The notes beneath the pieces were generated by a model. It was given only the letters and a program-made list of their open reading frames with translations, was not told where the DNA came from and searched no databases. A stretch of 63,987 nucleotides of DNA from an uncultured Candidatus Saccharibacteria bacterium (GTDB lineage Bacteria; Patescibacteriota; Minisyncoccia; SW-4-49-11). Where the stretch lies: the NCBI GenBank assembly GCA_964646465.1, contig CAZYEN010000015.1, forward strand, positions 1 through 63,987, given 5' to 3'. The translations under genes and the position numbers were made by a program. Shown piece after piece: positions 1,182 through 38,115 of this stretch (position 1 is its first letter; the number at the start of each line of letters is the position of its first letter).

Positions 1182-1976
1182 ATGCCACTGAAAGAAGTGC
1201 TCAATAAAGCGAAGGTTATAAGTAAAGAAAAAAAGCTTGAAATAGAGAAAAATTTAGAGTATGCTAAAAATATTATAGATGGAACCAATAATGTATATAA
1301 GGTACAAGAAGACATCTTTACTAAATATGGCTATATTTTAGGTAAAAAAGAAACAAGCCTTATACTGATAAAATCTATTCTTAGATCCATTTCAATAGAA
1401 CAAGTTGATGAATTAATGTGGAATCACTATCAAGATATAGATTGGAAAATATTACCAAAATATAATGACTGGGATTCTATTCTAAGATTAAAAGATCGTA
1501 AAAAAATTATATCTGAATGTATAGATATTCTTAGAATTAGTAAAGGAAATATTTATAGACCTATAATCTATACCTTAATTTCTCACATAGAAGGTTTATG
1601 TAGAGATATTATACTCGAATTTTTTGAAGAAACATCAAAGAGTTACACATATCCAGAATTAAAAAATAATATTACAGAAATTTTGAAAGAAATCTCTTCC
1701 CAAAAACAATTATCTTATGATAGTAAATCTGATCCCATTATAATAGATCATATACTTTCTAAGTTAATTACTGAATATTTGTTTATGAATGCTGATCATA
1801 AAGAATCAACAGAGGATATTCGAACTAAAAACCCATTTTTACTCTCAAGACATAAAATAATACATGGAAATATTTTTACAAACGAAGCTCTATCAAAAAG
1901 TAATCTTATTCGTTTATTATTAATATTTGTATATCTTGGAGATATTTATTACTGGCTTAAAATTAAGAAACCATAA
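1182..1976 (+). CDS. Hypothetical protein with a C-terminal HEPN-like R-x4-H motif
   Basis: The track ORF 987-1976 overlaps trxB. The first ATG after the trxB stop is at 1182 (MPLKEVLNK...). The motif LLSRHKIIHGN is encoded at 1848-1868. Confidence 0.5.
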   Translation: MPLKEVLNKAKVISKEKKLEIEKNLEYAKNIIDGTNNVYKVQEDIFTKYGYILGKKETSLILIKSILRSISIEQVDELMWNHYQDIDWKILPKYNDWDSILRLKDRKKIISECIDILRISKGNIYRPIIYTLISHIEGLCRDIILEFFEETSKSYTYPELKNNITEILKEISSQKQLSYDSKSDPIIIDHILSKLITEYLFMNADHKESTEDIRTKNPFLLSRHKIIHGNIFTNEALSKSNLIRLLLIFVYLGDIYYWLKIKKP

Positions 1977-2520
1977 ACTCCTGAAACACCTTCGTTTTTT
2001 CCAACAACCTTAACTCCTCCTTACACCACTCCGAAAAAGTAATCTCATCTGCAAAGGCTCTGGCTACAAACTCATCCCAATCAAGCCATTCATAATTCTC
2101 TACTTCTTCTGGATGTGGGGTTACAATATCAGAGCTAATCCCAAAAAATATTGGGCAAATTTCATTTTCTACTACTCCATCTCGCTCAAAACGGTAGCGA
2201 TAAGGACTAGCCTCCACTAAAGCCTCAAAATACTCAATCCCTAATTCATATTTAGCTCTTCTCCTGACAGCATCTATAGTCTCCTCCTCTAGCTCAGGAT
2301 GTCCGCAACAACTATTAGACCATACTAATGGCCAAGTTTTTTTACCTCTCCACCTTTGCTGAATTAGAAATTTTTTATCCTCAGGACGAAATAAAAATAA
2401 AGAAAAAGCTCGATGAAGTGGTGTTTCAAGAGTATGCACCTCAGATTTAGGAGCGACTCCAATTACTTCATTTAGCTCTGTTACTAAAACAACATGTTCA
2501 AAATTTGGTTTTTGTAGCAT
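1963..2520 (-). CDS. idi: Isopentenyl-diphosphate delta-isomerase, type 1 (Nudix fold)
   Basis: HRAFSLFLF, WSNSCCGHP and ENEICPIF are characteristic IDI-1 active-site blocks. Length is 185 aa. Confidence 0.85.
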   Translation of the reverse strand: MLQKPNFEHVVLVTELNEVIGVAPKSEVHTLETPLHRAFSLFLFRPEDKKFLIQQRWRGKKTWPLVWSNSCCGHPELEEETIDAVRRRAKYELGIEYFEALVEASPYRYRFERDGVVENEICPIFFGISSDIVTPHPEEVENYEWLDWDEFVARAFADEITFSEWCKEELRLLEKTKVFQEFMVS

Positions 2521-9401: not shown

Positions 9402-10493
9402 TAAACTTTCTCGCTCTTTTAATAAAATTTCTAATTGGATATTGGTATTCTGAATATGAATAAAGGCCTCATAAGGTGAAGTAAGTGGAATAATTTGCTT
9501 TTTATTATACTTATTATAGTTAAGATAATAGAAAAAATCTCTATTCATACTATAGAATAAATTTCGCATCAAAGGATCATCATCCACCGTATCTACTTCC
9601 GCATGCTCTTTGCCTAACATATAGGTAGCATACTCCCATAGTCGGAATATCGCTTTTTCAAGATTAGAATATCTTGACCAATTTCGCTCCTCTTGAATTC
9701 TAAGTGTAGCTGATTTATTAGATTTACTATGTGTAATCTGAGCTTTAGTAGCAGTCAGTGCAATTTCCAAAGTAGTAGATTTAGCCATAAGATCAATATC
9801 TTTATGATTTTTGACCTCCATCAAATCAAAATAATGACTATAAGCATACCAATGCACCCCAATATCCTGATGCTCCACCTCCCGAATCCATGTCACTCGT
9901 CCACCTCGGAATCGACGAAAAGATTTTAGTGTCATATTCATAGTTCCACCTTTTCTCTCATTCACAATAGTAATGAAATTCTTAATTCCAAGTCCAGTTA
10001 AGAGTTTTTCTAATGGTAATTGCCTATATATAATCGGCAAATATACTGAAGTCGGAATAAATTCAAGGTGAGTTTTCAATCTATCTACTGTACCTGCAAT
10101 TTCATCCTTCCACCAGTCAAAATAATACATACTAAGATGGCTACTGCCCCAATAAGCATCTGGGATTATATATAGCAAGTCTTTTTGTAGCATTTTTTGA
10201 ATAATTTCTATAAATTCTGGATACTTTTTGGCTGCCACATCCAAGAAATGCCCTGTAATAATCACCGATACTTTAATATTTTGCTTATATAAAAACTGAA
10301 ATAATGGAATATAAATTTGGGTAAATTCCCTGTCCCAGACAGTGTCACTTGTCTTTTTGTCTACAAAGGGTAATTTCGGGTTTTTGAGAATATCTACTAG
10401 AGATTTAGAAGTATAACTAAAAATCAGAGACAGAGATATTAGCACTGGATATTCTTGGGGAATAGAAATAAAATTTAGGTTTTTCTTACTCAT
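9396..10493 (-). CDS. GH57-like / polysaccharide-deacetylase-like fold protein (function uncertain)
   Basis: The block YIPLFQFLYKQNIKVSVIITGHFLDVAAKKYPEFIEIIQKML...DAYW resembles the GH57 N-terminal barrel. I do not see the usual N-terminal HQP catalytic block. It is operonic with GT and GH13 genes. Confidence 0.4.
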   Translation of the reverse strand: MSKKNLNFISIPQEYPVLISLSLIFSYTSKSLVDILKNPKLPFVDKKTSDTVWDREFTQIYIPLFQFLYKQNIKVSVIITGHFLDVAAKKYPEFIEIIQKMLQKDLLYIIPDAYWGSSHLSMYYFDWWKDEIAGTVDRLKTHLEFIPTSVYLPIIYRQLPLEKLLTGLGIKNFITIVNERKGGTMNMTLKSFRRFRGGRVTWIREVEHQDIGVHWYAYSHYFDLMEVKNHKDIDLMAKSTTLEIALTATKAQITHSKSNKSATLRIQEERNWSRYSNLEKAIFRLWEYATYMLGKEHAEVDTVDDDPLMRNLFYSMNRDFFYYLNYNKYNKKQIIPLTSPYEAFIHIQNTNIQLEILLKERESLL

Positions 10494-11841: not shown

Positions 11842-13389
11842 CTAGACCACCCTTTTATATAGAGAATACCCCTCTTTAGAATCAATATCTGGAGCTAGGG
11901 CTCTTATACTATTCGGAGGCATAGTAATCTCCAATAAACCAGCATAACCTCCTAGGGGTTCTAATGCCTCACCAGCTATTGGCTGCAATAAATCTTTGAG
12001 TACAGCCACCTCAGTAATAGAACCATTGCGCCACTGTATATGCTCGGTTATGGTCTCATTACTTGGATTCACAATTACCAAAACCGTATCCGCCACTTGA
12101 TTGGTATATCTCTCAAAAGCCAATAATCGATGAGCTGGAGCTATTCTAAAATCCCCCACTCGCAAAGCTCGATGCTTTTTTCTAAAATTGACTAATTCTT
12201 TAACCCAAATTAAATCTGCATTATTATCATTAACTTGACTCCAGTCCATAGCAGCTCTTTGCTCCGGATCCCAACCACCAGTCATCCCGACTTCACTGCC
12301 ATAATACAGATTAGGAGACCCCGGAAGAGTAAATTGTAAAACTTGAGCTAATTTTCTTTTGATAGGATTTTCGACTCTAGTAGCTAATCTTTGTAAGTCA
12401 TGATTATCCAGGAAGGTCCAACTTTTTAAGAGTGGTTCTATACCAATATCCAAAATTGTATGGCTAAGCATAGAAGCCACAGTCTCCACTTTAATCTGCT
12501 CTTCTACAAGCAAAATAATCAGACTCCTAAAATGATAATTCACCACTCCATCCATAGCTGGCATCCAACCCGCTGGATAATTTATAATCTCCCCCACCAC
12601 CAGAGAATTTGGCTTCTCTTGATGAGTAGCTTGAGTTAATTCAGACAGAAAATAATGACCCAAATCATAAGCCGTGTCTAGTCTCCAACCATCCACACCA
12701 TCTTGCAAATAAGTTTTGACCACTGAATTTTTAGCCTGCCATAAATATTCCTGCACTGCGGGGTTTTCCAAATTTAATTCTGGCAAATTGATCTGCCCTC
12801 GCCAGGTACAAGCTCCTCCGGGTAAACTTGTATCAAAAAAGAACCAATCCCTCCAAGGACTATTAGGATTATGCATTGCATCTTGGAATTGAGTAGAATT
12901 ACGCCCTATATGATTAAAAACCCCATCCAAAACTAATTTCATACCACGGCTATGCAAATTATCAGCTAAAGCCCTCAAATCCTCTGCCGTCCCTAATTCT
13001 GGGGAAATTTGCTTAAAGTCTAGACAATCATATTTATGATTCGTAAAACCTAGCTGAATCGGGCTTAAATACAAAACCTCAATTCCCAAACTCTGTATAT
13101 AATCTAATTTACTAATTAAACTTTGCAAATCCCCGCCCCAAAAATCTAATTCCTGGGCATAAACATTCAGCTCTGAGTTATACTCTCCAGCCTGAGGCTT
13201 ATCTGACCAATCTCTTAAATTTCGTGGAGCTGAATACAAATCTTTTTTAGCCTCCAAATCCAAACTAGGAGCAAATCTATCGACAATAACTTGATATACA
13301 ATAGCCCCATTGCGCCAATCTAATTCTCTCTTGGTATAAATGTCTATCTCTATCTGAGTGCCTATGTCGTTTGTATCTTGCTGTGGCAT
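11842..13389 (-). CDS. GH13 alpha-amylase family enzyme (neopullulanase/cyclomaltodextrinase-like)
   Basis: GH13 conserved regions DGVFNHIG, DGWRLDTAYD, VGEI and FLDNHDL. Confidence 0.85.
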   Translation of the reverse strand: MPQQDTNDIGTQIEIDIYTKRELDWRNGAIVYQVIVDRFAPSLDLEAKKDLYSAPRNLRDWSDKPQAGEYNSELNVYAQELDFWGGDLQSLISKLDYIQSLGIEVLYLSPIQLGFTNHKYDCLDFKQISPELGTAEDLRALADNLHSRGMKLVLDGVFNHIGRNSTQFQDAMHNPNSPWRDWFFFDTSLPGGACTWRGQINLPELNLENPAVQEYLWQAKNSVVKTYLQDGVDGWRLDTAYDLGHYFLSELTQATHQEKPNSLVVGEIINYPAGWMPAMDGVVNYHFRSLIILLVEEQIKVETVASMLSHTILDIGIEPLLKSWTFLDNHDLQRLATRVENPIKRKLAQVLQFTLPGSPNLYYGSEVGMTGGWDPEQRAAMDWSQVNDNNADLIWVKELVNFRKKHRALRVGDFRIAPAHRLLAFERYTNQVADTVLVIVNPSNETITEHIQWRNGSITEVAVLKDLLQPIAGEALEPLGGYAGLLEITMPPNSIRALAPDIDSKEGYSLYKRVV

Positions 13390-13562: not shown

Positions 13563-16500
13563 TTATCTCTCCTCAAATTCTCTACGAGAAATATTAAAGA
13601 ACTTCTCAAAAAATCGAGTCAGTTTTTGTAAAATACTTTCACGCTTTTTGGTATAGGCTCCATCAGGAGAGAATCGTGAGGGTTTAGTTTCCATAATCTG
13701 AGCAACTCCTGTCCCAGTACCCGCAATAGCACCATCTCGAAAAGCATTTTGTACAAAAGCATAAGTTGCTTCTCGATTCAATTCTTCACTCTCAATAATA
13801 GCCTCAAGCTCTTCAACCTTTTTCTCCTCCACAAATCTATGCCAATCATCATCCACATTCGATTGAATATCTAGCGAAGTAATAAATTGATTAATCAAAT
13901 CTTTCTTGTTACGAAGTTCGATACTCGAATCAATCGCCTTATTAATATCCACCAAAATCTCTTTATCTTGAGTATTATCCTCATGATATTTTTTAATCAA
14001 AGTCAAAATATAATCAATATTAATCTCAATTTGCTTGATAAGCTCCATCTCAAACACAAGATCCTCATTAATATTTTCTTTATCCTCATCTATTGTTTTA
14101 CGGAACTCATGATATAAATCAATATATTTACTATGATAATCTTGAATATCACGATCAGATAACATCTCATTCCCCGCAAACTCATCAAAAGTAGTCAAGA
14201 TATTCCTCAACCGCAAAATTGAACCATATAATTTGATAAACTCTTTTTTACCCGACTCACTAATAATCTCTTCATTCACGGGAAACTCTTGCAACAATTC
14301 ATCAATAGAGCTTTTATACCCTTTTATCTCCTTATCCCCATCCCGATAACCATGATAATAATCTCCATAAGCCTTCAGTAACACAATACCACTCGCCTCT
14401 TTATCACCAAATAATGCAATTGATTCATTCGTCACCCTCTCAAGATTTCGGAAACACACAATATTCCCAAAAGTCTTCACACTATTCAAGATACGATTTG
14501 TTCGCGAATAAGCCTGAAGCAATCCATGTAAACGCAAATTTTTATCCACCCAGAGAGTATTCAACGTTGTCGCATCAAATCCAGTCAAAAACATATTCAC
14601 CACAATCAAGATATCAATTTCGCGATTCTTTACCCTTTCACTCACATCCTTATAATAACTTTGGAATTTATCCGAAGAAGTATCCCAAGAAGTCCCAAAC
14701 ATTCCATTATAATCCTTGATAGCATTCTCAAGGAAATCTCGAGAGCTCATATCAAGTCCACTCGTATCCTCAGAATTTTCATCAATCAATCCATCAGCAT
14801 CCTCATCATTTGCCCCAAAGCTAAAAATAGTCGCAATTTTTAACTGCTTATCACTTGGCAAATCAGCTAACTGTTTTTTGAACTCAAGATAATATTGTTT
14901 TGCCATCGGGATAGAAGCCACCGCAAAAATAGAATTAAACCCAGCCAATCGACGGTCTTTAAGACGATAAAAACTATTTCGCTTTGTCTTTTGATCAAAA
15001 TGCTCCCGAATATACCCCACAATATTCTCAAGCCTCTCAGGAGATGCCAATACCTTCTCACGATCAATATCATTCACCTTTTTATCTTCAATATTCTCCG
15101 CCTCCCTCACCGTCGAAACATAATCCACCTTAAAGGGGAGTACATTCTTATCCGCAATCGCATTTACAATCGTATAGGTATGTAATTTATCCCCAAAAGC
15201 CTGCTCAGTCGTCTTGAGATCAGGACGCCCACCACCAGAAGCATTAATTGCAAAAATTGGCGTACCCGTAAATCCAAAAATATGATAATTCTTAAATGTC
15301 TTCGTAATAGCAGAATGCATATTCCCAAATTGAGACCGATGACATTCATCAAAAATCAGCACAATATGCCCATCAAAAATAATATGTCCATCATTACGCC
15401 CAATAAACCGATCCAGCTTCTGAATAGTCGTAATAATAATGCGAGATTCAGGATTTTCTAATTGCTGTTTGAGAATAGCCGTACTCGTATTACTATCCGC
15501 CGCCCCCTTTTGGAACTTATCATATTCCTTCATCGTCTGATAATCCAAATCCTTACGATCAACCACAAAAATAACCTTATCAATATAATCAAGTTTGCTC
15601 ACCAATTGAGACGTCTTAAAACTCGTCAAAGTCTTCCCCGAACCCGTCGTATGCCAAATATATCCACCAGCCTCAACAGTACCCAGCTTTTTATAATTCG
15701 TACTCACTTCAATACGATTCATAATACGCTCAGTCGCCACAATTTGATATGGTCTCATCACCAATAATTGCTTATCCGAAGTAAAGACACAATACTTCGT
15801 CAAAATATTCAGAATTGCATGCTTAGCAAAAAATGTCTTCGTAAAATCCATCAAATCCGTAATAGGTCTATTGGTAGCATCAGCCCACCAACTCGTAAAT
15901 TCATAACTATTACTACTACGCTTCCCCTTTTTAGCAGAATTTTGATTCGCCTCCTTGATATGTTGATTACGCGTAGTATTACTATAATATTTAGTATGAG
16001 TACCATTCGAGATTACAAATAATTGCACATACTCGAATAGTCCAGAATCAGCCCAAAAGCTTTCCCGCTGATAGCGATTAATCTGATTAAAAGCCTCTTG
16101 AATAGCAACGCCTCGACGCTTCAATTCAATATGTACCATAGGTAAACCATTTACCAAAATAGTTACATCATAGCGATTAGCCCTTTGCCCCTCCTCAGGA
16201 GTATATTGATTCAAAACCTGCAGACTATTATTATGAATAGATTTTTTATCTATCAAATCAATATTTTTAATAGAACCATCATCACGATACAATAATTTTC
16301 TACTATCCTCCTGAATAGTAGTTGTCTTCTCCTCAATACTTTGATTGGGATTAGCAATTGCAGTCTTAAAAAACTTCTCCCATTCCGTATCACTAAATTG
16401 TATATTATTTAATTTCTCCAATTGATGACGCAAATTCAAAACCAAATCAGTCTCAGAAGTAATACTCAAATATTCATAAGCCTGACTTTCTAATTGCTTG

Positions 16501-16631
16501 ATAAAAGCTCGCTCCAATTCCGCCTCACTCTGATAGCTCTCCTCTCTTACAGATGAAAGTATATATTCACCCACAACCGTACTTTGATTCTGTTGAGCGA
16601 CAAGATTATATTGAGATGTTTTATCTGACAT
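13563..16631 (-). CDS. hsdR: Type I restriction endonuclease subunit R
   Basis: SF2 helicase motifs TGSGKT and DECHRSQ, 1022 aa, with hsdS and hsdM on the same strand. Confidence 0.95.
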   Translation of the reverse strand: MSDKTSQYNLVAQQNQSTVVGEYILSSVREESYQSEAELERAFIKQLESQAYEYLSITSETDLVLNLRHQLEKLNNIQFSDTEWEKFFKTAIANPNQSIEEKTTTIQEDSRKLLYRDDGSIKNIDLIDKKSIHNNSLQVLNQYTPEEGQRANRYDVTILVNGLPMVHIELKRRGVAIQEAFNQINRYQRESFWADSGLFEYVQLFVISNGTHTKYYSNTTRNQHIKEANQNSAKKGKRSSNSYEFTSWWADATNRPITDLMDFTKTFFAKHAILNILTKYCVFTSDKQLLVMRPYQIVATERIMNRIEVSTNYKKLGTVEAGGYIWHTTGSGKTLTSFKTSQLVSKLDYIDKVIFVVDRKDLDYQTMKEYDKFQKGAADSNTSTAILKQQLENPESRIIITTIQKLDRFIGRNDGHIIFDGHIVLIFDECHRSQFGNMHSAITKTFKNYHIFGFTGTPIFAINASGGGRPDLKTTEQAFGDKLHTYTIVNAIADKNVLPFKVDYVSTVREAENIEDKKVNDIDREKVLASPERLENIVGYIREHFDQKTKRNSFYRLKDRRLAGFNSIFAVASIPMAKQYYLEFKKQLADLPSDKQLKIATIFSFGANDEDADGLIDENSEDTSGLDMSSRDFLENAIKDYNGMFGTSWDTSSDKFQSYYKDVSERVKNREIDILIVVNMFLTGFDATTLNTLWVDKNLRLHGLLQAYSRTNRILNSVKTFGNIVCFRNLERVTNESIALFGDKEASGIVLLKAYGDYYHGYRDGDKEIKGYKSSIDELLQEFPVNEEIISESGKKEFIKLYGSILRLRNILTTFDEFAGNEMLSDRDIQDYHSKYIDLYHEFRKTIDEDKENINEDLVFEMELIKQIEINIDYILTLIKKYHEDNTQDKEILVDINKAIDSSIELRNKKDLINQFITSLDIQSNVDDDWHRFVEEKKVEELEAIIESEELNREATYAFVQNAFRDGAIAGTGTGVAQIMETKPSRFSPDGAYTKKRESILQKLTRFFEKFFNISRREFEER

Positions 16632-16752
16632 AAGGATACAATTATCAATTAATAATGAAGGATCAAGAATTATGTATTTTCTGCTTCATTGAAATCTTTA
16701 TCTTACCCATAATTTTACACAATTTTTTTACTTATGTATATACTATCATATT

Positions 16753-17382
16753 TTATTTATTAAAATTATTCGGATGAAGAGAATCTAGTTCCCAATTTAT
16801 AGGGTTATTGATTATATATTCCTGTATACGAAATAAATCTTTATCATTTCTAATAATATGATCATAAAAAGATTTTTGCCAAAAAGTTCCATGTTTATTC
16901 AAAGTAGACTTCGTAGAGTCGGCGCCCTTAAACTTCGTAGAGTCGGCGCCCTCGCCGACACTTTCCCTCACACACCCACCGACACTCTCCTTAAACTCTC
17001 TCAAAGAAACCCTTTTAAACGAACTGACCACATCCCCCAAACTGACCTTTTTTCCCGTTACCAAAGAACAAGAATTCTCATCAAGTCCAATGATACCATG
17101 AAAATGATTCGGCATAATCACATATTCATCAAGAATAACATCCGAATAACATTGAGTTGTATTCAACCACACTTTTTCAATAATTTTTCCCAAGAGGTTA
17201 AGTTTGTATTTTGGACTTGATTGTATCGGCGAGGGTACCAATATAAACTCTGTGGTATTCTGTGTCGGCGAGGGCGCCGACTCTACGAAAATACATTGCA
17301 TATTGTAAGTGCATAAGGTGATAAAATACCAATATCCGCCTTGATATAAATTTTTGGATAAACGATTATTTTGTCGTTTCAT
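16753..17382 (-). CDS. RAYT / IS200-like HUH (Y1) transposase-family protein
   Basis: HUH motif MPNHFHGII. C-terminal block FWQKSFYDHIIRNDKDLFRIQEYIINNP, typical of REP-associated tyrosine transposases. Two loop regions are encoded by GC-rich hairpin repeats. Confidence 0.75.
   Translation of the reverse strand: MKRQNNRLSKNLYQGGYWYFITLCTYNMQCIFVESAPSPTQNTTEFILVPSPIQSSPKYKLNLLGKIIEKVWLNTTQCYSDVILDEYVIMPNHFHGIIGLDENSCSLVTGKKVSLGDVVSSFKRVSLREFKESVGGCVRESVGEGADSTKFKGADSTKSTLNKHGTFWQKSFYDHIIRNDKDLFRIQEYIINNPINWELDSLHPNNFNK
16907..16960 (+). repeat. Tandem GTAG-hairpin (REP-like) units inside the RAYT-like CDS
   Basis: ACTTCGTAGAGTCGGCGCCCT occurs twice with a 24-nt period. The second unit has the full hairpin GTCGGCG-CCCT-CGCCGAC (16942-16959), preceded by GTAG (16937-16940). 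Confidence 0.85.
17222..17289 (-). repeat. Inverted GTAG-hairpin (REP-like) units inside the RAYT-like CDS
   Basis: 17263-17289 is the exact 27-nt reverse complement of 16934-16960 (TTCGTAGAGTCGGCGCCCTCGCCGACA). A degenerate copy lies at 17222-17238. Confidence 0.85.
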
Positions 17383-17423
17383 ATTTTATATTTTCCCAAT
17401 TTGGGATTTTTTGTAAAATTTCC

Positions 17424-18608
17424 TTAATTCTGAATTTCCTGAAAGGTAAGAAGTTTATTGCGATAATATTTATATTGCTGACGACGAGCCTTAAGCTCAG
17501 CAGGTAGCCCAATAGAGATATTATTCACTAAATCATCGAATTTATCAAGTATAGAGACAATTCGCTCTTGTTCAGCAAGAGGTGGGACGGGGATTTTGAT
17601 TTTTGACATTACATTACTCATAATTTTGGGGTTTCCCATTCCAGAGCTAACATACTTTTTTGAAACAGTAGCTAGGATATATGATAAAAATTTTATATTA
17701 ACATTATCATCCTTCACTTTTAAAAGCCCACAAACATTAGTAATACTAAACTTTCCCTTACGATAAAAAATTGAACCAGCATGTGCACCATCTGTCGTCC
17801 AAGTTATATACTCCCCATCATAATCATATGTATCTATATTGCCAAAGATACCGTAATTTACCGTTTGAGAAGAATATACAGGATATTTCCCAGCATTATC
17901 TTTAAGATAATCTTTAGACATAACCCTACCACGACTAATTAAGCAAATTTCTTCAATTTTTTTCTGTTCCACATCATCACCAAAAGACAAAAGTCCATCT
18001 CGATAAAAATCATACTGTTTTTTACGAGCTTCTAGCTCTGCTTCTAGCTCTGCTTCTAGCTCGGTAAAATGATCCAAAATCCTCACAATCTCCTCCTGTA
18101 CTGAAAGTGGAGGGACGGGAATTTTGAATTTTGCTAACCAAGTTGTACTCATATTTTTCTGCCCTCCTCCCGTCGCATTACTCATTGCCTCTGTTTCAAA
18201 ACTATCTTGATCAAAAAAATGGAACAGATAGCGTGTTAAAACCAAGCTCTCATCAGCCCTAATACAAGCTACTCGTTGATTAAGCCCAGCTGGTAAATTT
18301 ACACTAGCTATCATAGCAACTCTACCAACATTCCCAGTTAAAGACATCACTAAATCATTTTCTTTTAATAAATATTTTTCAATCTCTTTTTTTGTATCTA
18401 GAGAATAAAATTTCAAATCTTTATCAGACATTTTACCTTTTTGAACATCAGAAATTCGAATAACACGAATCCCTTTTTCAGTATATTTACTGCTTTTAAA
18501 TGAATATCCATTCAAAATCTCTGCAATTTCTCTTACACTCTTAAACTCCACCCCATTGGGGCATAGTTCTTTAATTAGTGATTCAATTTTGGAATATTTT
18601 TCACTCAT
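17424..18608 (-). CDS. hsdS: Type I restriction-modification specificity subunit
   Basis: Two target-recognition domains separated by conserved helical spacers: ...EEIVRILDHF...(ELEA)3RKKQY... and ...QERIVSILDKF...LKARRQQY. Confidence 0.9.
   Translation of the reverse strand: MSEKYSKIESLIKELCPNGVEFKSVREIAEILNGYSFKSSKYTEKGIRVIRISDVQKGKMSDKDLKFYSLDTKKEIEKYLLKENDLVMSLTGNVGRVAMIASVNLPAGLNQRVACIRADESLVLTRYLFHFFDQDSFETEAMSNATGGGQKNMSTTWLAKFKIPVPPLSVQEEIVRILDHFTELEAELEAELEARKKQYDFYRDGLLSFGDDVEQKKIEEICLISRGRVMSKDYLKDNAGKYPVYSSQTVNYGIFGNIDTYDYDGEYITWTTDGAHAGSIFYRKGKFSITNVCGLLKVKDDNVNIKFLSYILATVSKKYVSSGMGNPKIMSNVMSKIKIPVPPLAEQERIVSILDKFDDLVNNISIGLPAELKARRQQYKYYRNKLLTFQEIQN
18028..18063. repeat. 3 x 12-bp tandem repeat in the central conserved region of hsdS
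   Basis: GCTTCTAGCTCT occurs three times (the last base of copy 3 differs). It encodes ELEA-ELEA-ELEA. Confidence 0.9.
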
Positions 18609-18609
18609 A

Positions 18610-18960
18610 TTATTTTTTAGTTAAATACACACAGATAATATACACTGTAATAGCCGGAATACCTATTGAGAAGGCAAGTATATAATTTCCTATTGGAAAA
18701 TAACTTAATGAAAAACCAAATAGTACAGAAGATATAAATTCAAAAACAGTTATTAGGCTATAGTTTTTTAGTTTTGCATCTAATAAAATATAACTCTTTT
18801 CAATTTCATGATTTTTCAATCGAAATTTTTCACATTCGTCTTGTGTTTTTTTAAGAGATGCTTCAAGATTATTTACTTTTTCTAACATCATCTTATATGC
18901 AACTGTGGTAGATTGTTCTTTCTTAGTTAGATTATTTTTCTGCTTTCTTCCAGACCTCAT
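18610..18960 (-). CDS. Small coiled-coil protein with two C-terminal TM helices
   Basis: 116 aa. It lies 1 nt from both the upstream stop and the hsdS start, suggesting translational coupling. It has a basic N-terminus, a heptad-like middle and hydrophobic segments VFEFISSVLFGFSL and ILAFSIGIPAITVYIICVYL. Confidence 0.6.
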   Translation of the reverse strand: MRSGRKQKNNLTKKEQSTTVAYKMMLEKVNNLEASLKKTQDECEKFRLKNHEIEKSYILLDAKLKNYSLITVFEFISSVLFGFSLSYFPIGNYILAFSIGIPAITVYIICVYLTKK

Positions 18961-18961
18961 A

Positions 18962-19303
18962 CTATTTAAAAAGTTGGATTAAACCAAAAGATGACCAGCT
19001 AAATTGTTTTGTTGGCTTTCTATGAGGTATTTGTGGAATAGCTGGAATGGGGGGTATTTGTGGAATAGGAAATATTGGAGATGGATAGTCATTAGATAAT
19101 TCTGAAAAACCAACAACAAAACCATATAAATCTCTTATAACATATCCCTCTAGCCAACCCAGATGTTTACCTTTATATGAATAAATAATATTATCCTTCT
19201 CATAACCTAGGTTATATCCATGTTTATCACAAAAAGTACCTTCTGTTGAAAATATTACTTGAGGAGTACCATACCTATCATAGAACCAAATATTATTACT
19301 CAT
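18962..19303 (-). CDS. Small beta-hairpin-repeat protein (4-fold beta-flower-like) with a Pro-rich repeat tail
   Basis: 113 aa with repeated G/aromatic hairpin units (YGTPQVIF, HGYNLGY, KGKHLGWLEGY, LYGFVVGF). The tail is PIFPIPQIPPIPAIPQIP. The family assignment is by pattern only. Confidence 0.55.
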   Translation of the reverse strand: MSNNIWFYDRYGTPQVIFSTEGTFCDKHGYNLGYEKDNIIYSYKGKHLGWLEGYVIRDLYGFVVGFSELSNDYPSPIFPIPQIPPIPAIPQIPHRKPTKQFSWSSFGLIQLFK

Positions 19304-19468
19304 AAAAATTATTATTGTTTTCTATATCCACTACTATATTATCAATCTTTTCTTGTATGAACTTTATTGCTTGCTCTTTGTCCATGTATTATTGAAATAT
19401 TTATATCTCTATTATAGCATAATTATATTAATATGAGAGTAGTTTTCAAAAATCCAATTCTTCTTGTG

Positions 19469-19519
19469 GACTGAGCCTGTCGAAGCCCTAGATCCCATCG
19501 CCTTCGATAAACTCAGGCT
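19469..19519. repeat. GC-rich imperfect palindrome (REP-like element)
   Basis: In GACTGAGCCTGTCGAAGCCCTAGATCCCATCGCCTTCGATAAACTCAGGCT the arms CTGAG/CTCAG and TCGAAG/CTTCGA pair. It sits between two divergent promoters. Confidence 0.6.
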
Positions 19520-19551
19520 ACTTCTGTTTTATCCATTACTACTCATTGCTA

Positions 19552-19580
19552 TTGAAAACATAAAAGGATTATGGTATAAT
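19552..19580 (+). promoter_or_regulatory. Near-consensus sigma70-type promoter with extended -10
   Basis: TTGAAA (19552-19557), a 17-nt spacer, then TGgTATAAT (19572-19580). Confidence 0.6.
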
Positions 19581-19586
19581 GTATTT

Positions 19587-28768: not shown

Positions 28769-29311
28769 TTAAAGACTATAATCTTTAATTAGAATATTAT
28801 ACTTTTTATTCTGCTCAGCTATATCTTTTAACTGCTCTTCACTCACAGGAAAGTCAAAACAATCTTGAGTATAAGTGTCTTTATTTTTACAATTATCTTT
28901 AACTTCGGTATAAAAAGCAGCTTGAGTTTCTGTTTTAGTGAAATCCTGAGTATCAACAGTTAGAACTTCAACAGATTTACCAAAAGCCTCTGACAACACC
29001 ACAATATATTGCTTATTATCCTTTTTCTTACCTAATTGATACTCAGACTGATTACAAGGCAATTCATTTGAGCACTCTCTTAAAGTTAGTTTTTTATCCC
29101 CTTGAGTTAATTCACAACTTACCCCAGTTAAGTCTGTTTTGGCACAACCCTCTCCAGTTAAATTAATCTTAATGATTTCTGTACGAGGACTAAAAGCAGC
29201 AAATATAGCAGTAAAGACAGCTACTATAATAACAGCAATGATATTCCTAATCCACCTTTGATTACTGTTATTGGGAGTAGGCTCTAAAGCTAAATCTAGT
29301 CGATTGGGCAT
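28769..29311 (-). CDS. Hypothetical membrane-anchored Cys-rich protein
   Basis: One TM helix followed by a soluble domain with paired Cys residues. It overlaps the upstream glutaredoxin-like gene by 16 nt. Confidence 0.5.
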   Translation of the reverse strand: MPNRLDLALEPTPNNSNQRWIRNIIAVIIVAVFTAIFAAFSPRTEIIKINLTGEGCAKTDLTGVSCELTQGDKKLTLRECSNELPCNQSEYQLGKKKDNKQYIVVLSEAFGKSVEVLTVDTQDFTKTETQAAFYTEVKDNCKNKDTYTQDCFDFPVSEEQLKDIAEQNKKYNILIKDYSL

Positions 29312-29583
29312 ACTTTTTGAGTACTATCTTTGGTAACTTGCTCTGTTTTAGAGTAATTAGCATATAGATATTCAACAATAGCATCAGACTCATATAACAT
29401 AACTCCCTTCTCTTGGTCTACCAAAAATGGTACTTGCGGTTTATCTCCTAACTTCATCATCACCTCTCTTTGAGCTGAGCCGGTCTTTGAAATACGACAA
29501 ATAAAGTCTAGCTCTAAATCATTCAAAGCTACTCTTACTTTATGACAAAACGGACATTCTTCTCTTTGATATAGTTCTAACAT
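29296..29583 (-). CDS. Glutaredoxin-like protein
   Basis: CPFC redox motif at the N-terminus and a 95-aa thioredoxin fold pattern (VPFLVD...ESDAIVEYL). Confidence 0.75.
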   Translation of the reverse strand: MLELYQREECPFCHKVRVALNDLELDFICRISKTGSAQREVMMKLGDKPQVPFLVDQEKGVMLYESDAIVEYLYANYSKTEQVTKDSTQKVCPID

Positions 29584-30115: not shown

Positions 30116-31027
30116 TCATTCTGTACGGTTGACTATATAGTCAATTAGAGCTAATAGCGGCTCTGCTAGACCATTTTGGTTATATGGTTCCAGAGCCTGT
30201 TTAGACTCGGTCACTAGAGATTTAACACGCCTCCTACACCTCGCTAAACCCAATAACTTTAGATAAGCGGATTTATCAGCGATCAGATCCCTACCATCAG
30301 TCTTACCTAACACTTCAGCGTTAGCGGTGAAATCAAGTATATCATCACTTATCTGAAAGGCCAGACAAATACACTTGGCATAGACTCGCAGAGCCTCTAT
30401 CAAATTTTCATCTGCTCCACCGATTATAGCTCCACTGACTACAGAGGCGCGTAATAAAGAGCCTGTCTTATGGAGATGTATGTATTCAAGGGTTTCGAGA
30501 TTCACCTCCTTACCTTCACATTCTAGATCCACTACTTGGCCACCCATTAAACCAGGAGCACCCGAGGCAAGCGAAATCTCGCCTACAACCGCTAGCAAAC
30601 GCTCAGCCGGCACACCAGGACTACGCGAGATCATCTCAAAAGCACGGACTAGCAAGGAGTTCCCTGCTAAGATAGCCATTGCCTCCCCATAAACCTTATG
30701 ATTCGTTGGCCGACCTTGTCGTAAATCATAATTATTCATGGGTGGGAGGTCGTCATGTATTAGAGCTGAAGTATGAATCATTTCTAATGCTACCGCTGTA
30801 AGCATGGCTTGGTCTACTGCACCTCCAGCCAGCTCGCAAGCAGCTAGACATAATATCGGCCTTAACCGCTTACCATCATTCAGAAGGGAATACCTCATTG
30901 ACTCCCTAAGGGTATTTGGCATATCAATATCCAGACTCAATGCTTGATCAAGAGCCTCCTCAATCTGTACACGTCTATCCCCAATATATTTAGTAAATTC
31001 AAACTTATCAGAATTTTTACTAGCCAT
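30116..31027 (-). CDS. crtE: Polyprenyl (geranylgeranyl) diphosphate synthase, cyanobacterial CrtE-like
   Basis: Blocks GKRLRPILCLAACEL, LIHDDLPPMNNYDLRQGRPTNHKVYGE, HKTGSLL and FQISDDILD. I chose the start at 31027 (MASKNS...) because AAGGAG lies 9 nt upstream; the track ORF extends to 31087. G+C is far above its neighbours. Confidence 0.8.
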   Translation of the reverse strand: MASKNSDKFEFTKYIGDRRVQIEEALDQALSLDIDMPNTLRESMRYSLLNDGKRLRPILCLAACELAGGAVDQAMLTAVALEMIHTSALIHDDLPPMNNYDLRQGRPTNHKVYGEAMAILAGNSLLVRAFEMISRSPGVPAERLLAVVGEISLASGAPGLMGGQVVDLECEGKEVNLETLEYIHLHKTGSLLRASVVSGAIIGGADENLIEALRVYAKCICLAFQISDDILDFTANAEVLGKTDGRDLIADKSAYLKLLGLARCRRRVKSLVTESKQALEPYNQNGLAEPLLALIDYIVNRTE

Positions 31028-33573: not shown

Positions 33574-33660
33574 AAGTTTATATTCAAAATAAAAAAGAAA
33601 AAAGCACCCAGTCATTGACTAGATGCTAAAAGATTGAACTCAGGAGGGTAACCCTCAAAA

Positions 33661-33808
33661 TGGGAGTGGCTGGATTTGAACCAACTCTTTTGGATTAAAT
33701 TCAAGATATTTGTGTGGGTGCCAAATATCCCGAAAGTGATTAGAGTTTCCAAGAGGCGCCTCTCTAATCCCAAAAGCTCCTTGAGATACATAAAGCATCT
33801 CCACCCCC
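33661..33808 (-). ncRNA. 148-nt tRNA-like RNA of unknown class
   Basis: A 7-bp acceptor GGGGGUG/CACUCCC with discriminator A. A canonical T-arm GUUGG-UUCAAAU-CCAGC. In place of the anticodon arm there is a long helix CUUUUGG(G)AUU/AAUCCAAAAG enclosing two perfect 8-bp hairpins (GAUUAGAG/CUCUAAUC and GAUAUUUG/CAAAUAUC). It is co-transcribed with the tRNA-Val. Confidence 0.5.
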
Positions 33809-33817
33809 GAGGGGAAA

Positions 33818-33889
33818 CGGCGGATGGTGGATTCGAACCCCCGACTTCCTGATTGTAATGCAGTCACTCTAACTCTGAGTTAATCCGCC
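33818..33889 (-). tRNA. tRNA-Val(UAC), degenerate
   Basis: Acceptor GGCGGAT/ATCCGCC, T-loop TTCGAAT and anticodon loop ATTACAA. The anticodon stem has only 3 Watson-Crick pairs (ACTGC/TCAGG), the T-stem has a G-A mismatch, and the D-loop lacks GG. Confidence 0.6.
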
Positions 33890-34742: not shown

Positions 34743-35522
34743 CTAATTTTTTGCAAATATAGAATGAATATTTAGCCTTTTATTTACCCAAGCCCAATAC
34801 CCTACTCCAGCCACCACCAACCACCAGAATCCAAGCCAGCCTGCAATTCCAATCCAAAAGACCAAACTCCAGAGTCCAGATAAACTGAGCCAATAGGCAA
34901 TATTATTATCCAGACTTTTGCGTTTTGGAAATAATAGATAGAATCCCCAAAAAGCTAATAAACTAGTCACCATCCAACCAAAGAAATTCATCAAAGGTAC
35001 TCCATAATACCAGCCTTGAATTTCCCAAACCCAAAAACCTAAAGCCGTCGCTCCTGGGTCAAGAATCAAATCAAAAGTCGTCATCAAAATAGCTCCAACT
35101 AGAATCTTGAGCCACATTCTCTTGATGCCAAGCCTACTTACCAATATCAAACTAAAGAAAAAAATTGGCACCCAAGATAAACTCACCGTCCAAGGTACTA
35201 ACCCGAAGACTTTGAGATTCCCCAACACCTCCCCATATACAAAATTACTATATGGCCATCCCGTAACAATTGCAAAAGACTCTATCAAGAGTGGATAGAT
35301 GAATATTATTAATATTTTCCACCAATCTTGTCTCCAATTACACCATTTTGAGAGTCCATATAATATAGGCAGCGCAATCAAAACATTGGTCAACTGCGAG
35401 ATTACTTGGAATATCCAAAAGGGAAAAGGTAATGCTTCTGGCCTCAGACTAAAATAGACCACAAAGAATCCACTTAAAACCAAGATAATGGTTGGGATAA
35501 TTAGTAATAATTTTTTCTGCAT
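34743..35522 (-). CDS. Carotenoid biosynthesis membrane protein (DUF422 / CruF-like hydratase family)
   Basis: A 259-aa polytopic, Trp-rich membrane protein, divergent from a UbiA prenyltransferase and next to a CrtI-family desaturase. The family call is by architecture and context. Confidence 0.55.
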   Translation of the reverse strand: MQKKLLLIIPTIILVLSGFFVVYFSLRPEALPFPFWIFQVISQLTNVLIALPILYGLSKWCNWRQDWWKILIIFIYPLLIESFAIVTGWPYSNFVYGEVLGNLKVFGLVPWTVSLSWVPIFFFSLILVSRLGIKRMWLKILVGAILMTTFDLILDPGATALGFWVWEIQGWYYGVPLMNFFGWMVTSLLAFWGFYLLFPKRKSLDNNIAYWLSLSGLWSLVFWIGIAGWLGFWWLVVAGVGYWAWVNKRLNIHSIFAKN

Positions 35523-35557
35523 ATATGATATACTTATTATTATATAATTATATCATA

Positions 35558-36397
35558 ATGAGTATTACTAAACTATTACAAATTTCCAGACCCAGATTTT
35601 GGATTTATCTATTAGGACCCTATTTAATTGGGAGTATTCTTGCCTTTGATCCAATGCAGATTATCTGGCAATGGCAGTTTTGGCTAGGGTTTATCTATTT
35701 TACCCTACCTGCTAACCTTTTGATTTATGGGATCAATGATATTTTTGATTATGAGACTGATAAACTCAATCCCAAAAAACAAAATTATGAGGCTCTAGTC
35801 ACTCCTGCTGAGCATATTTCGGTTTGGACTGTAATTTTGCTAACTAATATACCTTTTATTCTAGCTATATATTGGCTGAACCCTTTGACTTTATTTGGCT
35901 GGCTGGGGTTTATTATCTTGGGAGTGCAATATTCAGCTTGGCCAATTCGAGCTAAAGCTAAGCCTTTTTTAGACTCTATTTTTAATATACTATATGTTTT
36001 CCCTGGAGTAATTGGCTATACTTTATTCGCTCAGAGCCTGAATTTAGATTGGCGATTATTATTGAGTGCTGGACTTTGGACTATGGCTATGCATACTTAC
36101 TCAGCAATTCCCGATATTGACACTGATAGACAGAGCAAAACTAATACTATTGCAACAATGTTAGGCTCAAAATCAACCCTCATTTATTGTTTTATCTGCT
36201 ATACCCTATCAGGAATATTTTTAGCTCAGTTTAGCACAACTCTTGGGGTTTTGATTGCCATTGTATATGGATTTATGATTGGCTTTAGCTGGTCTACTAA
36301 TACGGCTAAAATTTTCAAATTATATACTTATTTCCCCTTACTTAATACTGTTATTGGGTTTATTTTATTCTGGAGTATTATGATTTGGTATAGGTAA
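35558..36397 (+). CDS. UbiA-family prenyltransferase (lycopene-elongase LyeJ-like)
   Basis: Asp-rich motifs NDIFDYETD and IPDIDTDRQ, with about 8 TM helices. The start at 35558 (MSITKLLQISRPRFW) is preferred over the track start 35525. Confidence 0.7.
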   Translation: MSITKLLQISRPRFWIYLLGPYLIGSILAFDPMQIIWQWQFWLGFIYFTLPANLLIYGINDIFDYETDKLNPKKQNYEALVTPAEHISVWTVILLTNIPFILAIYWLNPLTLFGWLGFIILGVQYSAWPIRAKAKPFLDSIFNILYVFPGVIGYTLFAQSLNLDWRLLLSAGLWTMAMHTYSAIPDIDTDRQSKTNTIATMLGSKSTLIYCFICYTLSGIFLAQFSTTLGVLIAIVYGFMIGFSWSTNTAKIFKLYTYFPLLNTVIGFILFWSIMIWYR

Positions 36398-36426
36398 ACT
36401 GTTTGATGAGGTGATTATGAATTTAT

Positions 36427-36481
36427 GTAGGGGCGGTTATTTTGTCCTCCTTTGAAGGAGGTGGCCATAGGCCGGAGGTGG
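36427..36481 (+). repeat. GC-rich GTAG-hairpin repeat (family with TATTTTGTCCTCC core)
   Basis: In GTAGGGGCGGTTATTTTGTCCTCCTTTGAAGGAGGTGGCCATAGGCCGGAGGTGG the hairpin is CCTCC-TTTGAA-GGAGG. The 13-nt core recurs at 40784-40796. A second hairpin CCCCC-TCCAAA-GGGGG lies around 36567-36590. Confidence 0.6.
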
Positions 36482-36612
36482 ATAAATACTAATTATCAGT
36501 ATAAGTTAAATATGAGAGTAAATTATATTTATGATTATAACTATATCCATACCCTCCCCCTTCGGGTACCCCCTCCAAAGGGGGGCAAATAAAGAGAGGA
36601 TGAAATACTTCC

Positions 36613-38115
36613 CTACCCCTCACCTCCTAATGGGCTGTCTTGTTTGATTTTAGCGATTCTTTTATAGACCATTTCGGCACTAATTAACTGGATTGGGACT
36701 CCAATTCCTGGATTGGTACCGGCTCCGACATAATATAAGTTTTTGACTTTTTTGGAATAATTATTTGGTCTGAAGATAGCTGTTTGATTAATAGTATGGG
36801 CAAGTCCGAGAGCGGTTCCTTTATAAGCATTATAATCTTGCTGGAAGTCTTTGACACTATATAGTCTTTTATAGATAATCCTGTCTTTCAGGTCTGTAAT
36901 ATCCATCTCTTCCTGCATAATAGTTAGGATTTTATCGGCATAAGCTTCAAGATGCTCTTCAGTATATTCCAATCCTGCTGCAATAGGTACTAGTACGAAT
37001 AAATTTTCATCTCCTTCTGGAGCTACGCTAGGGTCGGTTTTAGATGGAGCACAGACATATAGAGATGGATCTTCCGGCCACATTGGATCATCGAATATTT
37101 GTTTGAAGTTAGTTTTCCAATCTTTTGAGAATAGTAGATTATGATGTACTAAACTGTCTACCTTACCTTTTATTCCTAGATACATAATCAAGGCTGATGG
37201 CGCTAGGACTTTTTTATCCCAATATTTTTCATCATATTGTCTATTTTCGGCTGGTAATAAATTCATCTCCGTATGAGTCATATCGGCATTAGAGACAACT
37301 ATATCGGCTTTGACTATTTCTCTTGATTCTAATTCTACTCCTACGGCTTTGCCTTGCTCAACTATAATTTGCTTTACACCATTTCCGCTGACTAGGTTAA
37401 CCCCGTTCTTCTTAGCTATATTAACTAAAGCTTCGGTAATTTTATACATACCTCCTTGTGGGTAAAATACTCCCATATTAAAGTCAATATGATTCATTAT
37501 ACTGTATAGAGCTGGGGTATTATATGGGGAGCTTCCGAGGAACACGAGTGGATATTGTAGTACTTTTTTTACTAAATCATGCTTAAAATATTTACTGACA
37601 TAGGCATCCATATCACTGAATACTGATAATTTGGAGCCTTCTATCATTGTCCTGAAGTTGATAAAATCAAAAATAGAATCATAATTCTTATACATAAAAC
37701 CTTCTTTGGCAATTTCATATTGCTGGCGGGCCTTATCTAAATATTCTTTTAGTTTATCCCCTGCCCCCGGTTCTAATTCTTCCAAAACAGGAATATCCCG
37801 CTCCAAATCAGAGAACATATCGATGACTTTATTATCATCTTTGAAAAATATTCTATACGATGGTTCCAGTCTAATTAACTCTAGATGATCTTCCACCTTC
37901 TCTCCCATAAATTCAAAAAAGTTCTCAAATACATCGGGCATCAGATACCAAGATGGGCCCATATCAAACCTAAACCTTTCAGCTTCAAAAATATTAGCTC
38001 TACCTCCTAGATTTTGGTTTTTCTCGTATAGACTGACTTCATAACCTTTACGGGCTAGAATACAAGCGGTAGCTAATCCCCCTATTCCCCCACCTATAAT
38101 GATGACTTTTTGCAT
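36613..38115 (-). CDS. Phytoene desaturase-family carotenoid desaturase (CrtI/CrtD-like)
   Basis: N-terminal IIIGGGIGGLATA FAD motif, the C-terminal YYVGAGTNPGIGVP CrtI signature, 500 aa. Confidence 0.85.
   Translation of the reverse strand: MQKVIIIGGGIGGLATACILARKGYEVSLYEKNQNLGGRANIFEAERFRFDMGPSWYLMPDVFENFFEFMGEKVEDHLELIRLEPSYRIFFKDDNKVIDMFSDLERDIPVLEELEPGAGDKLKEYLDKARQQYEIAKEGFMYKNYDSIFDFINFRTMIEGSKLSVFSDMDAYVSKYFKHDLVKKVLQYPLVFLGSSPYNTPALYSIMNHIDFNMGVFYPQGGMYKITEALVNIAKKNGVNLVSGNGVKQIIVEQGKAVGVELESREIVKADIVVSNADMTHTEMNLLPAENRQYDEKYWDKKVLAPSALIMYLGIKGKVDSLVHHNLLFSKDWKTNFKQIFDDPMWPEDPSLYVCAPSKTDPSVAPEGDENLFVLVPIAAGLEYTEEHLEAYADKILTIMQEEMDITDLKDRIIYKRLYSVKDFQQDYNAYKGTALGLAHTINQTAIFRPNNYSKKVKNLYYVGAGTNPGIGVPIQLISAEMVYKRIAKIKQDSPLGGEG

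Follow-up and report, generated by a model that had tools for sequence, protein, structure and literature searches.

The 63,987-nucleotide contig CAZYEN010000015.1 (assembly GCA_964646465.1), hereafter the window, carries three adjacent genes encoding a CruF-like membrane protein, a LyeJ-like prenyltransferase of the UbiA family, and a desaturase of the CrtI family (Table 1). An earlier sequence-only reading of this DNA had described the trio as a modified, probably C50, carotenoid module, and the core of that description was supported by family models. A check of the open reading frames (ORFs) of the window found all three intact between 34743 and 38115, where they had been placed. The closest named homologues of the trio came from metagenome-assembled genomes (MAGs) labelled 'Candidatus Parcubacteria bacterium' and 'Candidatus Paceibacterota bacterium', in agreement with the suspected Candidate Phyla Radiation (CPR) host. 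Sequencing runs bearing the trio were metagenomes of freshwater sediment, freshwater, and plankton. Together, these matches assign the host to a freshwater Parcubacteria/Paceibacteria lineage, with the trio on its chromosome. We estimate a probability of about 0.7 that the trio represents the tailoring half of a pathway to carotenoids of the bacterioruberin type (acyclic C50) in this CPR bacterium.

Table 1. Carotenoid-related features of the window.
Feature	Position	Strand	Description
cruF-like	34743..35522	-	259 amino acids; PF04240; predicted carotenoid hydratase, bisanhydrobacterioruberin hydratase type
Spacer	35523..35557		35 bp, AT-rich, head-to-head between the cruF and ubiA start codons
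ubiA, LyeJ-like	35558..36397	+	279 amino acids; predicted lycopene elongase/hydratase; a longer ORF from 35525 has 290 amino acids
crtI, CrtID type	36613..38115	-	500 amino acids; predicted phytoene desaturase and carotenoid 3,4-desaturase
CrtE homologue	30116..31027	-	peripheral, probably outside the module; substituted catalytic positions
idi, type 1 isopentenyl-diphosphate isomerase	1963..2520	-	peripheral, 32 kb from the trio

Assignment of the 500-residue protein to the CrtI family was borne out by a profile search (TIGR02734 crtI_fam, 510.1 bits versus a cut-off of 238.1). An FAD-binding GxGxxG motif lies near its N-terminus (IIGGGIGG, residues 5-12), and its relatives in the PDB include 4REP and 4DGK. 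The protein marginally passed the CrtID model NF058655 (659.7 bits, cut-off 640) and failed the CrtD-only models (283 bits versus 500; 242 versus 580). As the haloarchaeal reference we used locus L012, a plasmid of Halarchaeum sp. CBA1220 annotated crtB-crtI-prenyltransferase-cruF. Its desaturase is 47% identical to that of the window and scores 754 bits on NF058655. This model corresponds to Haloarcula japonica C0507 and D1086, each of which performs both phytoene desaturation and 3,4-desaturation, as established by gene disruption and complementation (PMC11946383). Because CrtID-type enzymes are bifunctional in Haloarcula japonica, one desaturase suffices and no separate phytoene desaturase need be missing from the window. 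From its model membership, and from the status of its homologues as sole desaturase in the five-gene clusters described below, we infer that the window enzyme combines the CrtI and CrtD activities.

The UbiA protein matched PF01040 (E=5e-22, 78.7 bits) and contains both Asp-rich motifs (GINDIFDYETD and AIPDIDTDRQ), as first described. The start then assumed, at 35525, is probably spurious. All close homologues have 279 residues, as does an independent gene call on identical DNA, and the upstream ATG, located within an inverted repeat, is in relatives either out of frame or followed by a stop. The most likely start is therefore M12 at 35558. The protein passed NCBIfam NF009516 (258.8 bits, cut-off 205; the Halarchaeum LyeJ scored 397.5) and scored at most 46 bits on all models for quinone, haem, chlorophyll, tocopherol, and archaeal-lipid prenyltransferases (MenA, UbiA, MqnP, ChlG, homogentisate, and GGGP-transferase), which argues against a non-carotenoid prenyltransferase. 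It fell under the cut-offs of the actinobacterial-type models NF010119 and NF009608. Over its full length it is 37% identical to the Halarchaeum LyeJ, with conserved NDxxDxxxD, YSAxPxRxK, and PDIxxD motifs. This equals the 36-37% identity reported between Halobacterium Lye and the Lye of bacterioruberin-producing Arthrobacter (PMC9122864). Its homologues carry the JGI name 'lycopene elongase/hydratase', and the gene stands beside a carotenoid desaturase and a CruF gene in the window, in six relatives, and in more than 25 further loci across phyla. We predict that this protein is a LyeJ-type lycopene elongase/hydratase.

For the third protein, a PF04240 search (E=3.4e-36; 125.6 bits versus a cut-off of 25; profile positions 9-203 of 209) placed it in the carotenoid-synthesis family, as expected of the CruF-type membrane protein first described. 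All 16 family-invariant columns of a 28-sequence alignment were present, including E81, Y96, D151, LDP154-156, W164, N179, and GW182-183, and these residues are also conserved relative to the Halarchaeum and Arthrobacter homologues (32% and 40% identity, respectively). An AlphaFold2 model (mean predicted local distance difference test score, 92.5) was all-helical and polytopic, with about eight long helices. Comparison of this model with PDB structures revealed no relative (best E 0.5, TM <0.3), and a sequence search of the PDB was also empty. These features are consistent with a predicted hydratase of the bisanhydrobacterioruberin type.

The start codons of cruF and ubiA lie head-to-head, 33-35 bp apart, in the window and in three relatives (L002, L003, and L005; about 9968-10000). 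Alignment with three relatives showed that the spacer is conserved in the clade; in the window it is spanned by a 14-nt inverted repeat, TATGATATACTTAT/ATAATTATATCATA. Short head-to-head spacing is shared by other CPR clusters (e.g. 23 bp in L010). Promoter-like hexamers occur around the spacer on both strands (35474-35501, +; 35581-35552, -), as consensus matches only. Promoter and terminator scans of such AT-rich DNA gave 41 consensus matches versus 25 expected and were not used as evidence, except for the tRNA promoter described below. The spacer may be a shared operator, or it may hold bidirectional or overlapping divergent promoters.

Reverse-complemented, the trio reads crtI> <ubiA cruF>, which matches exactly the 3' portion of a cluster of five genes, crtE>crtB>crtI> <ubiA cruF>. 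We found this cluster in Uhrbacteria, Magasanikiibacteria, Saccharibacteria, Abditibacteriaceae, other MAGs, and metagenome contigs; examples are one MAG of Uhrbacteria and one of Patescibacteria, the latter with a contig of 982 kb. A scan of a genome collection, based on an alignment of CPR CrtB proteins, returned at least 27 loci. Among the matches listed, 11 had all five genes and 5 more were without only a detectable cruF. The titles of these loci named Magasanikiibacteriota, Saccharibacteria, Uhrbacteria, and Abditibacteriaceae, along with several MAGs labelled Gammaproteobacteria. A metagenome scan added many more loci of the crtE-crtB-crtI/ubiA-cruF type. The window shares with these clusters an identical gene order and orientation from crtI onward, the short head-to-head spacer, and a nearby glutaredoxin gene, at identities of 55-68% (CrtI), 40-47% (UbiA), and 34-48% (CruF). 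Unlike them, the window clade has no crtE-crtB upstream of crtI, a site that in the window holds only small unannotated ORFs.

Several variants of the cluster were seen. In seven CPR loci (L008, L020, L025, L028, L035, L037, and L084), crtE-crtB-crtI-ubiA occurred without detectable PF04240, and in L008 ubiA is followed by an unannotated 158-residue ORF (12352-12828). Lineages of this kind may end the pathway at bisanhydrobacterioruberin or rely on a different hydratase. Natural CrtB-CrtI fusions of about 815 residues, with an N-terminal phytoene synthase and a C-terminal desaturase, were present in Abditibacteriales/Abditibacterium MAGs and metagenomes (loci L023, L036, L050, and L052; proteins P0245, P0248, P0253, P0258, P0265, and P0272). 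Their desaturase part is 64-65% identical to the window CrtI. The crtI of L007, returned by tblastn in two pieces, was considered as a broken gene and then ruled out as such, its ORF being continuous (538 residues) with an in-frame, duplication-like insert.

Synteny of the trio was kept in six close relatives, at 71-92% amino acid identity. These include contigs of 234 kb and 425 kb from the assemblies GCA_964585065.1 and GCA_943354045.1. Further NCBI MAGs encode UbiA proteins at 75-87% identity. The clade arrangement is rmlCD-...-gnd-...-grx-valS-[variable]-cruF/ubiA-[variable]-crtI. The gap between ubiA and crtI is an insertion hotspot in the relatives, holding an M23 peptidase in one subgroup (L002, L003, and L004; 11119-11727 in L002 coordinates) and a PIN-domain toxin-antitoxin pair in a second (L005 and L006; 11332-11995); in the window it measures only 215 bp. 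Beyond the clade, CrtI homologues 67-68% identical to that of the window still have crtE-crtB adjacent. One contig, L083 (Logan SRR7943696, 4196-6520; CPR-like), carries ubiA> <crtI; upstream of crtI it has glmS in place of crtB, and at the expected cruF position two unannotated ORFs (151 and 156 residues). Its CrtI is 68% identical to that of the window and groups with the window clade (98% neighbor-joining bootstrap). As crtE-crtB is adjacent in loci of 67-68% CrtI identity yet absent beside crtI in both the window clade and L083, loss of this linkage is derived within a subgroup.

The same three families, in the order crtI, ubiA, cruF, occur in Haloarcula japonica, as c0507 (CrtD/CrtID)-c0506 (LyeJ)-c0505 (CruF), and in the Halarchaeum locus; Halobacterium salinarum Lye belongs to the same system. 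The likeness extends to passage of the CrtID and NF009516 models and to conservation of the Asp-rich motifs and the CruF invariant residues. In contrast to the window, where ubiA is on the opposite strand, crtB is unlinked, and the host is a CPR bacterium, the haloarchaeal genes are co-directional with crtB immediately upstream. Identities to the Halarchaeum proteins are also only 47%, 37%, and 32% for CrtI, UbiA, and CruF, and the window CruF falls under the equivalog cut-offs. Among bacteria, Arthrobacter agilis and A. bussei have Lye-CrtD-CruF genes for bacterioruberin (PMC9122864). The corresponding bacterial trio of Arthrobacter sp. CAN_A6 (L011) resembles that of the window in UbiA (37%) and CruF (40%). 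It differs in that its UbiA fits NF010119, its CrtD-like desaturase (23% identical) fits neither the CrtID nor the crtI_fam model, and Arthrobacter has a separate CrtI.

Other carotenoid systems share single components with the window. In the cyclic C50 pathways of Corynebacterium, Micrococcus, and Dietzia, the UbiA-family protein CrtEb adds C5 units to lycopene and is accompanied by heterodimeric C50 cyclases of the CrtYe/Yf type. We saw no small C50 cyclase genes of this type next to the window trio, and to our knowledge those C50 clusters contain no PF04240 hydratase. The CruF of cyanobacteria and Deinococcus (carotenoid 1',2'-hydratase or gamma-carotene 1'-hydroxylase) belongs to the same Pfam family as the window protein but, in contrast to it, is not associated with a LyeJ-type UbiA.

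The pathway of Haloarcula and Halobacterium, summarised in PMC9122864 and PMC11946383, suggests by homology the chemistry of each step and the end product. CrtI(D) would desaturate phytoene to lycopene. The UbiA enzyme would then add C5 dimethylallyl units at C-2 and C-2' of lycopene, with hydration of the 1,2-bond, after which CrtI(D) would introduce the 3,4 and 3',4' double bonds. Finally, the CruF-like protein would hydrate the double bonds of both added C5 units to give bacterioruberin. The pigment would be located in the cell membrane, stiffening it or giving protection against oxidation or light.

Several findings weigh against this proposal, beginning with the fit of the family models. 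The desaturase exceeds the CrtID cut-off by only 20 bits. The CruF-like protein lies below both equivalog cut-offs (TIGR03460, 97.6 versus 154.7 bits; NF041333, 83.2 versus 300) and is therefore a family member, not a certified equivalog. These CruF scores, together with a weak match to the gamma-carotene 1'-hydroxylase model NF045693 (58 bits versus a cut-off of 400; best match residues 79-189 only), would also fit a different end product, such as a hydroxylated C40 or C45 carotenoid. In that case CruF would serve as a 1,2-hydratase of lycopene-type ends, the role that it has in Deinococcus and cyanobacteria, and UbiA would attach a single prenyl group or a different one. The CPR clusters with UbiA and CrtI but no detectable CruF point the same way, since they indicate that the two functions are separable, and the unsupported deep nodes of the UbiA tree leave room for it. 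We regard such a product as improbable, given that a LyeJ-type UbiA, a CrtID-type desaturase, and a PF04240 protein are the defining bacterioruberin set in haloarchaea and Arthrobacter. Moreover, the CruF-like protein scored higher on the bacterioruberin-type models than on the cyanobacterial one. The Arthrobacter homologue is likewise under the cut-offs (127.5 and 119.9 bits; the Halarchaeum CruF passes at 191.9 and 377.5), in a genus with known bacterioruberin producers.

A further difficulty for the bacterioruberin proposal is that NF009516 is also passed by a Haloferax larsenii paralogue (222.7 bits) outside any carotenoid cluster, so the model is not specific for lycopene elongase. This paralogue (L013; plasmid NZ_CP078064.1, 5965-6852) is surrounded by other UbiA-family genes and a geranylgeranyl reductase. 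Acceptance of a protein from a non-carotenoid context, and the loss or unlinking of the front-end genes, could be taken to mean that the trio is what remains of a once complete cluster now in decay, or that ubiA is unrelated to carotenoids and there by chance. We consider both versions very improbable. Between the window and two relatives, with synonymous sites saturated or nearly so, dN/dS was 0.12-0.14 for cruF, 0.06-0.11 for ubiA, and 0.06 for crtI, as compared with 0.04-0.11 for valS, 0.07-0.08 for gnd, and 0.03 for uvrA. CrtI retains 89-92% amino acid identity across the clade and is conserved like UvrA. A freshwater metatranscriptome yielded contigs with about 90% identity to most of crtI and to the 3' end of ubiA; as such libraries can contain DNA, transcription of a close relative's crtI is probable. 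With dN/dS at the housekeeping level and these metatranscriptome contigs, the genes do not look like relics. Despite synonymous saturation, the ORFs are intact in the window and all six relatives, their catalytic motifs are preserved, and the adjacency of ubiA, cruF, and crtI is kept across phyla. The trio is thus vertically retained under purifying selection as strong as that on housekeeping genes.

The ancestry of the trio offered little sign of horizontal transfer. No clear compositional anomaly was detected: the G+C content of the genes is 34-38%, close to the 34% of the whole window and in keeping with the native-like low G+C first described, and their GC3 of 0.31-0.39 is slightly above that of housekeeping genes and equal to that of valS. 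In neighbor-joining trees of UbiA and CrtI the clade fell inside a mixed group of CPR, Abditibacteria, and Acidobacteria. As the deep nodes were unsupported, no donor can be named.

The remaining points against the bacterioruberin proposal concern the supply of its substrate. A phytoene synthase gene (crtB, PF00494) was found neither in the 64-kb window nor, in the six relatives, within 10 kb of the trio. For the window, where the sequence-only reading had already noted the absence of this gene, the result rests on tblastn with three queries (the CrtB domain of the CrtB-CrtI fusion P0248 and two CPR CrtBs) and on Pfam and NCBIfam searches of ORFs of at least 100 residues outside larger genes. 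Two collection scans, each with two short patterns from conserved CrtB peptides, returned at least 69 crtB loci, and among the matches listed none was attributable to the clade; the patterns are narrow and the clade genomes perhaps not in the collections, such that these scans are hints, not proof of absence. Of at least 27 loci on genome contigs, none among the matches listed was on a known contig of the clade. Of at least 42 on metagenome contigs, none among the matches listed had a clade-like CrtI (all at most 66% identity) or other tblastx similarity to clade DNA.

The only polyprenyl synthase in the window also counts against the proposal, as its first Asp-rich motif is damaged and the enzyme is probably impaired. 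This gene had been taken for a geranylgeranyl diphosphate (GGPP) synthase. A polyprenyl synthase of the CrtE type does exist there, 57% identical to the cyanobacterial CrtE of PDB 7MY6 (PMC9796789), but its substituted catalytic positions make it weak evidence for native precursor supply. It scored 395 bits on NF045685 (cut-off 460) and 326 on the FPPsyn subfamily model (cut-off 275). The first Asp-rich motif reads DDLPPMNNYDLRQG in place of DDLPxMD(N/D)DDxRRG, with AGN in place of AGD, so that four near-invariant positions within and just after the motif carry N, Y, Q, and N. Almost all of the 150 best homologues have D, D, RRG, and D there (standard residues in 147/148 and 120/122). The last Asp of DDxxxxD in trans-prenyltransferases is required for Mg2+/diphosphate binding; its substitution here is the reason to consider this copy probably impaired.

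The history of this CrtE homologue appears to differ from that of the trio. Its G+C content is 44%, versus about 35% for its neighbours. The gene is absent from the corresponding site in the six relatives and present, with identical neighbours, in two other assemblies of the host organism. Many of its best matches among 1.84 billion representatives had N-terminal extensions, and from their length only we took these to be plastid-type GGPP synthases. The gene looks horizontally acquired and either impaired or repurposed, and its cyanobacterial/plastid type hints at contact with a phototroph. Being damaged, and absent at this site in relatives, it is not evidence for an intact local front end. 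The proposed idi gene was upheld by two models (NF002995, 194.7 bits versus 127; TIGR02150, 121.9 versus 105.8).

Where the substrate of the trio comes from therefore has two candidate answers. One is that the module is as proposed but the organism has neither phytoene synthase nor an active GGPP synthase. An episymbiont of this kind would take phytoene, lycopene, or another acyclic carotenoid from the membrane of its host and convert it to a C50 pigment of its own, in line with the scavenging of host precursors raised by the sequence-only reading. We consider this unlikely, though several observations would fit it. The genes crtE-crtB are missing exactly at the site, upstream of crtI, that they occupy in other CPR clusters, and L083, the contig grouped with the window clade by its CrtI, also has glmS there. 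No clade crtB was among the matches listed in the two scans, the local CrtE homologue carries its four substitutions at near-invariant catalytic positions, and a trio under strong purifying selection must have a substrate. Reliance of CPR bacteria on a host isoprenoid pigment has a precedent in Saccharibacteria rhodopsins and host retinal, at least as cited in PMC9948471. On the other side, the absence of crtB was seen over only about 64 kb of genome. A full CrtI/CrtID profile at 89-92% clade identity also fits four-step phytoene desaturation better than a role restricted to 3,4-desaturation. We know of no demonstrated uptake of a carotenoid precursor by one bacterium from another. A more specific form, which we hold to be somewhat more doubtful still, is that the freshwater Parcubacteria clade discarded crtE and crtB, retains under strong selection just the desaturase, elongase, and hydratase of the back end, and finishes its C50 pigment from host phytoene or lycopene, the degenerate crtE next to valS being a trace of contact with a phototroph.

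The second answer is that crtB is simply unlinked. The free-living Arthrobacter sp. CAN_A6 has no PF00494 gene within 10 kb of its Lye, CrtD-like, and CruF genes and is therefore a precedent for an unlinked crtB. We consider a crtB elsewhere in the genome the likeliest source of phytoene.

Genes near the carotenoid loci include recurrent redox or metal-stress functions. A glutaredoxin gene directly follows cruF in Uhrbacteria (L010, 13077-13385) and in the window clade is found 5 kb away from the trio (29296-29583 in the window), while FUR-family regulators flank the carotenoid clusters L084 (2076-2486) and L085 (2374-2805). This recurrence suggests a link of carotenoid clusters with oxidative stress. 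Elsewhere, the window has the repertoire of a small-genome bacterium, with aminoacyl-tRNA synthetases, rmlCD, murI, G6PD, 6PGD, UvrA, PolA, SufS, NifU, and type I restriction-modification. Exact-protein look-ups at the window ends found no longer contigs. The restriction-modification genes (hsdR, hsdS, and hsdM; 13563-22025, -) are interleaved with a DUF3800 gene, a 'Bflower' small protein, and two unannotated ORFs.

Just downstream of valS, a tRNA with anticodon UAC (Val; 33818-33889, -) was detected by Rfam (49.8 bits) and missed by ARAGORN. Its anticodon stem is mismatched at the first and last pairs. Directly upstream lies a sigma-70 promoter with a 12/12 consensus match (TTGACA-16-TATAAT; 33931-33904, -). 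The element GAGTTGGTTCAAATCCAGCCACTCCCA, at about 33660-33686 (-), resembles a tRNA T-arm and 3' acceptor end and may be a tRNA fragment; neither ARAGORN nor Rfam found a full tRNA there. A terminator-like hairpin follows it at 33627-33603.

The sequence-only reading had considered a pigment pathway unexpected in a CPR bacterium, a view that did not hold. Work on Lake Baikal had already described lyeJ, crtD, and cruF in Patescibacteria in 2023 and discussed them in terms of adaptation to cold (PMC9948471), and we found complete clusters in several CPR MAGs. To this known gene set the locus adds a well-conserved lineage with no linked crtE/crtB and a single CrtID-type desaturase. Our comparison also shows that CPR bacteria commonly have these genes in a five-gene cluster, a layout that they share with Abditibacteriota and related MAGs.

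If crtB simply lies elsewhere in the genome, this is an ordinary locus. If the front end is truly absent, it would illustrate cleanly how an episymbiont can complete a pathway with precursors supplied by its host, here by finishing a host-derived pigment precursor. CPR bacteria are thought to produce little of their membrane material themselves. A C50 carotenoid made or finished by the cell itself would belong to the small number of lipids that these bacteria control, with a bearing on how such ultrasmall cells tolerate oxygen, light, and cold in surface freshwater habitats.

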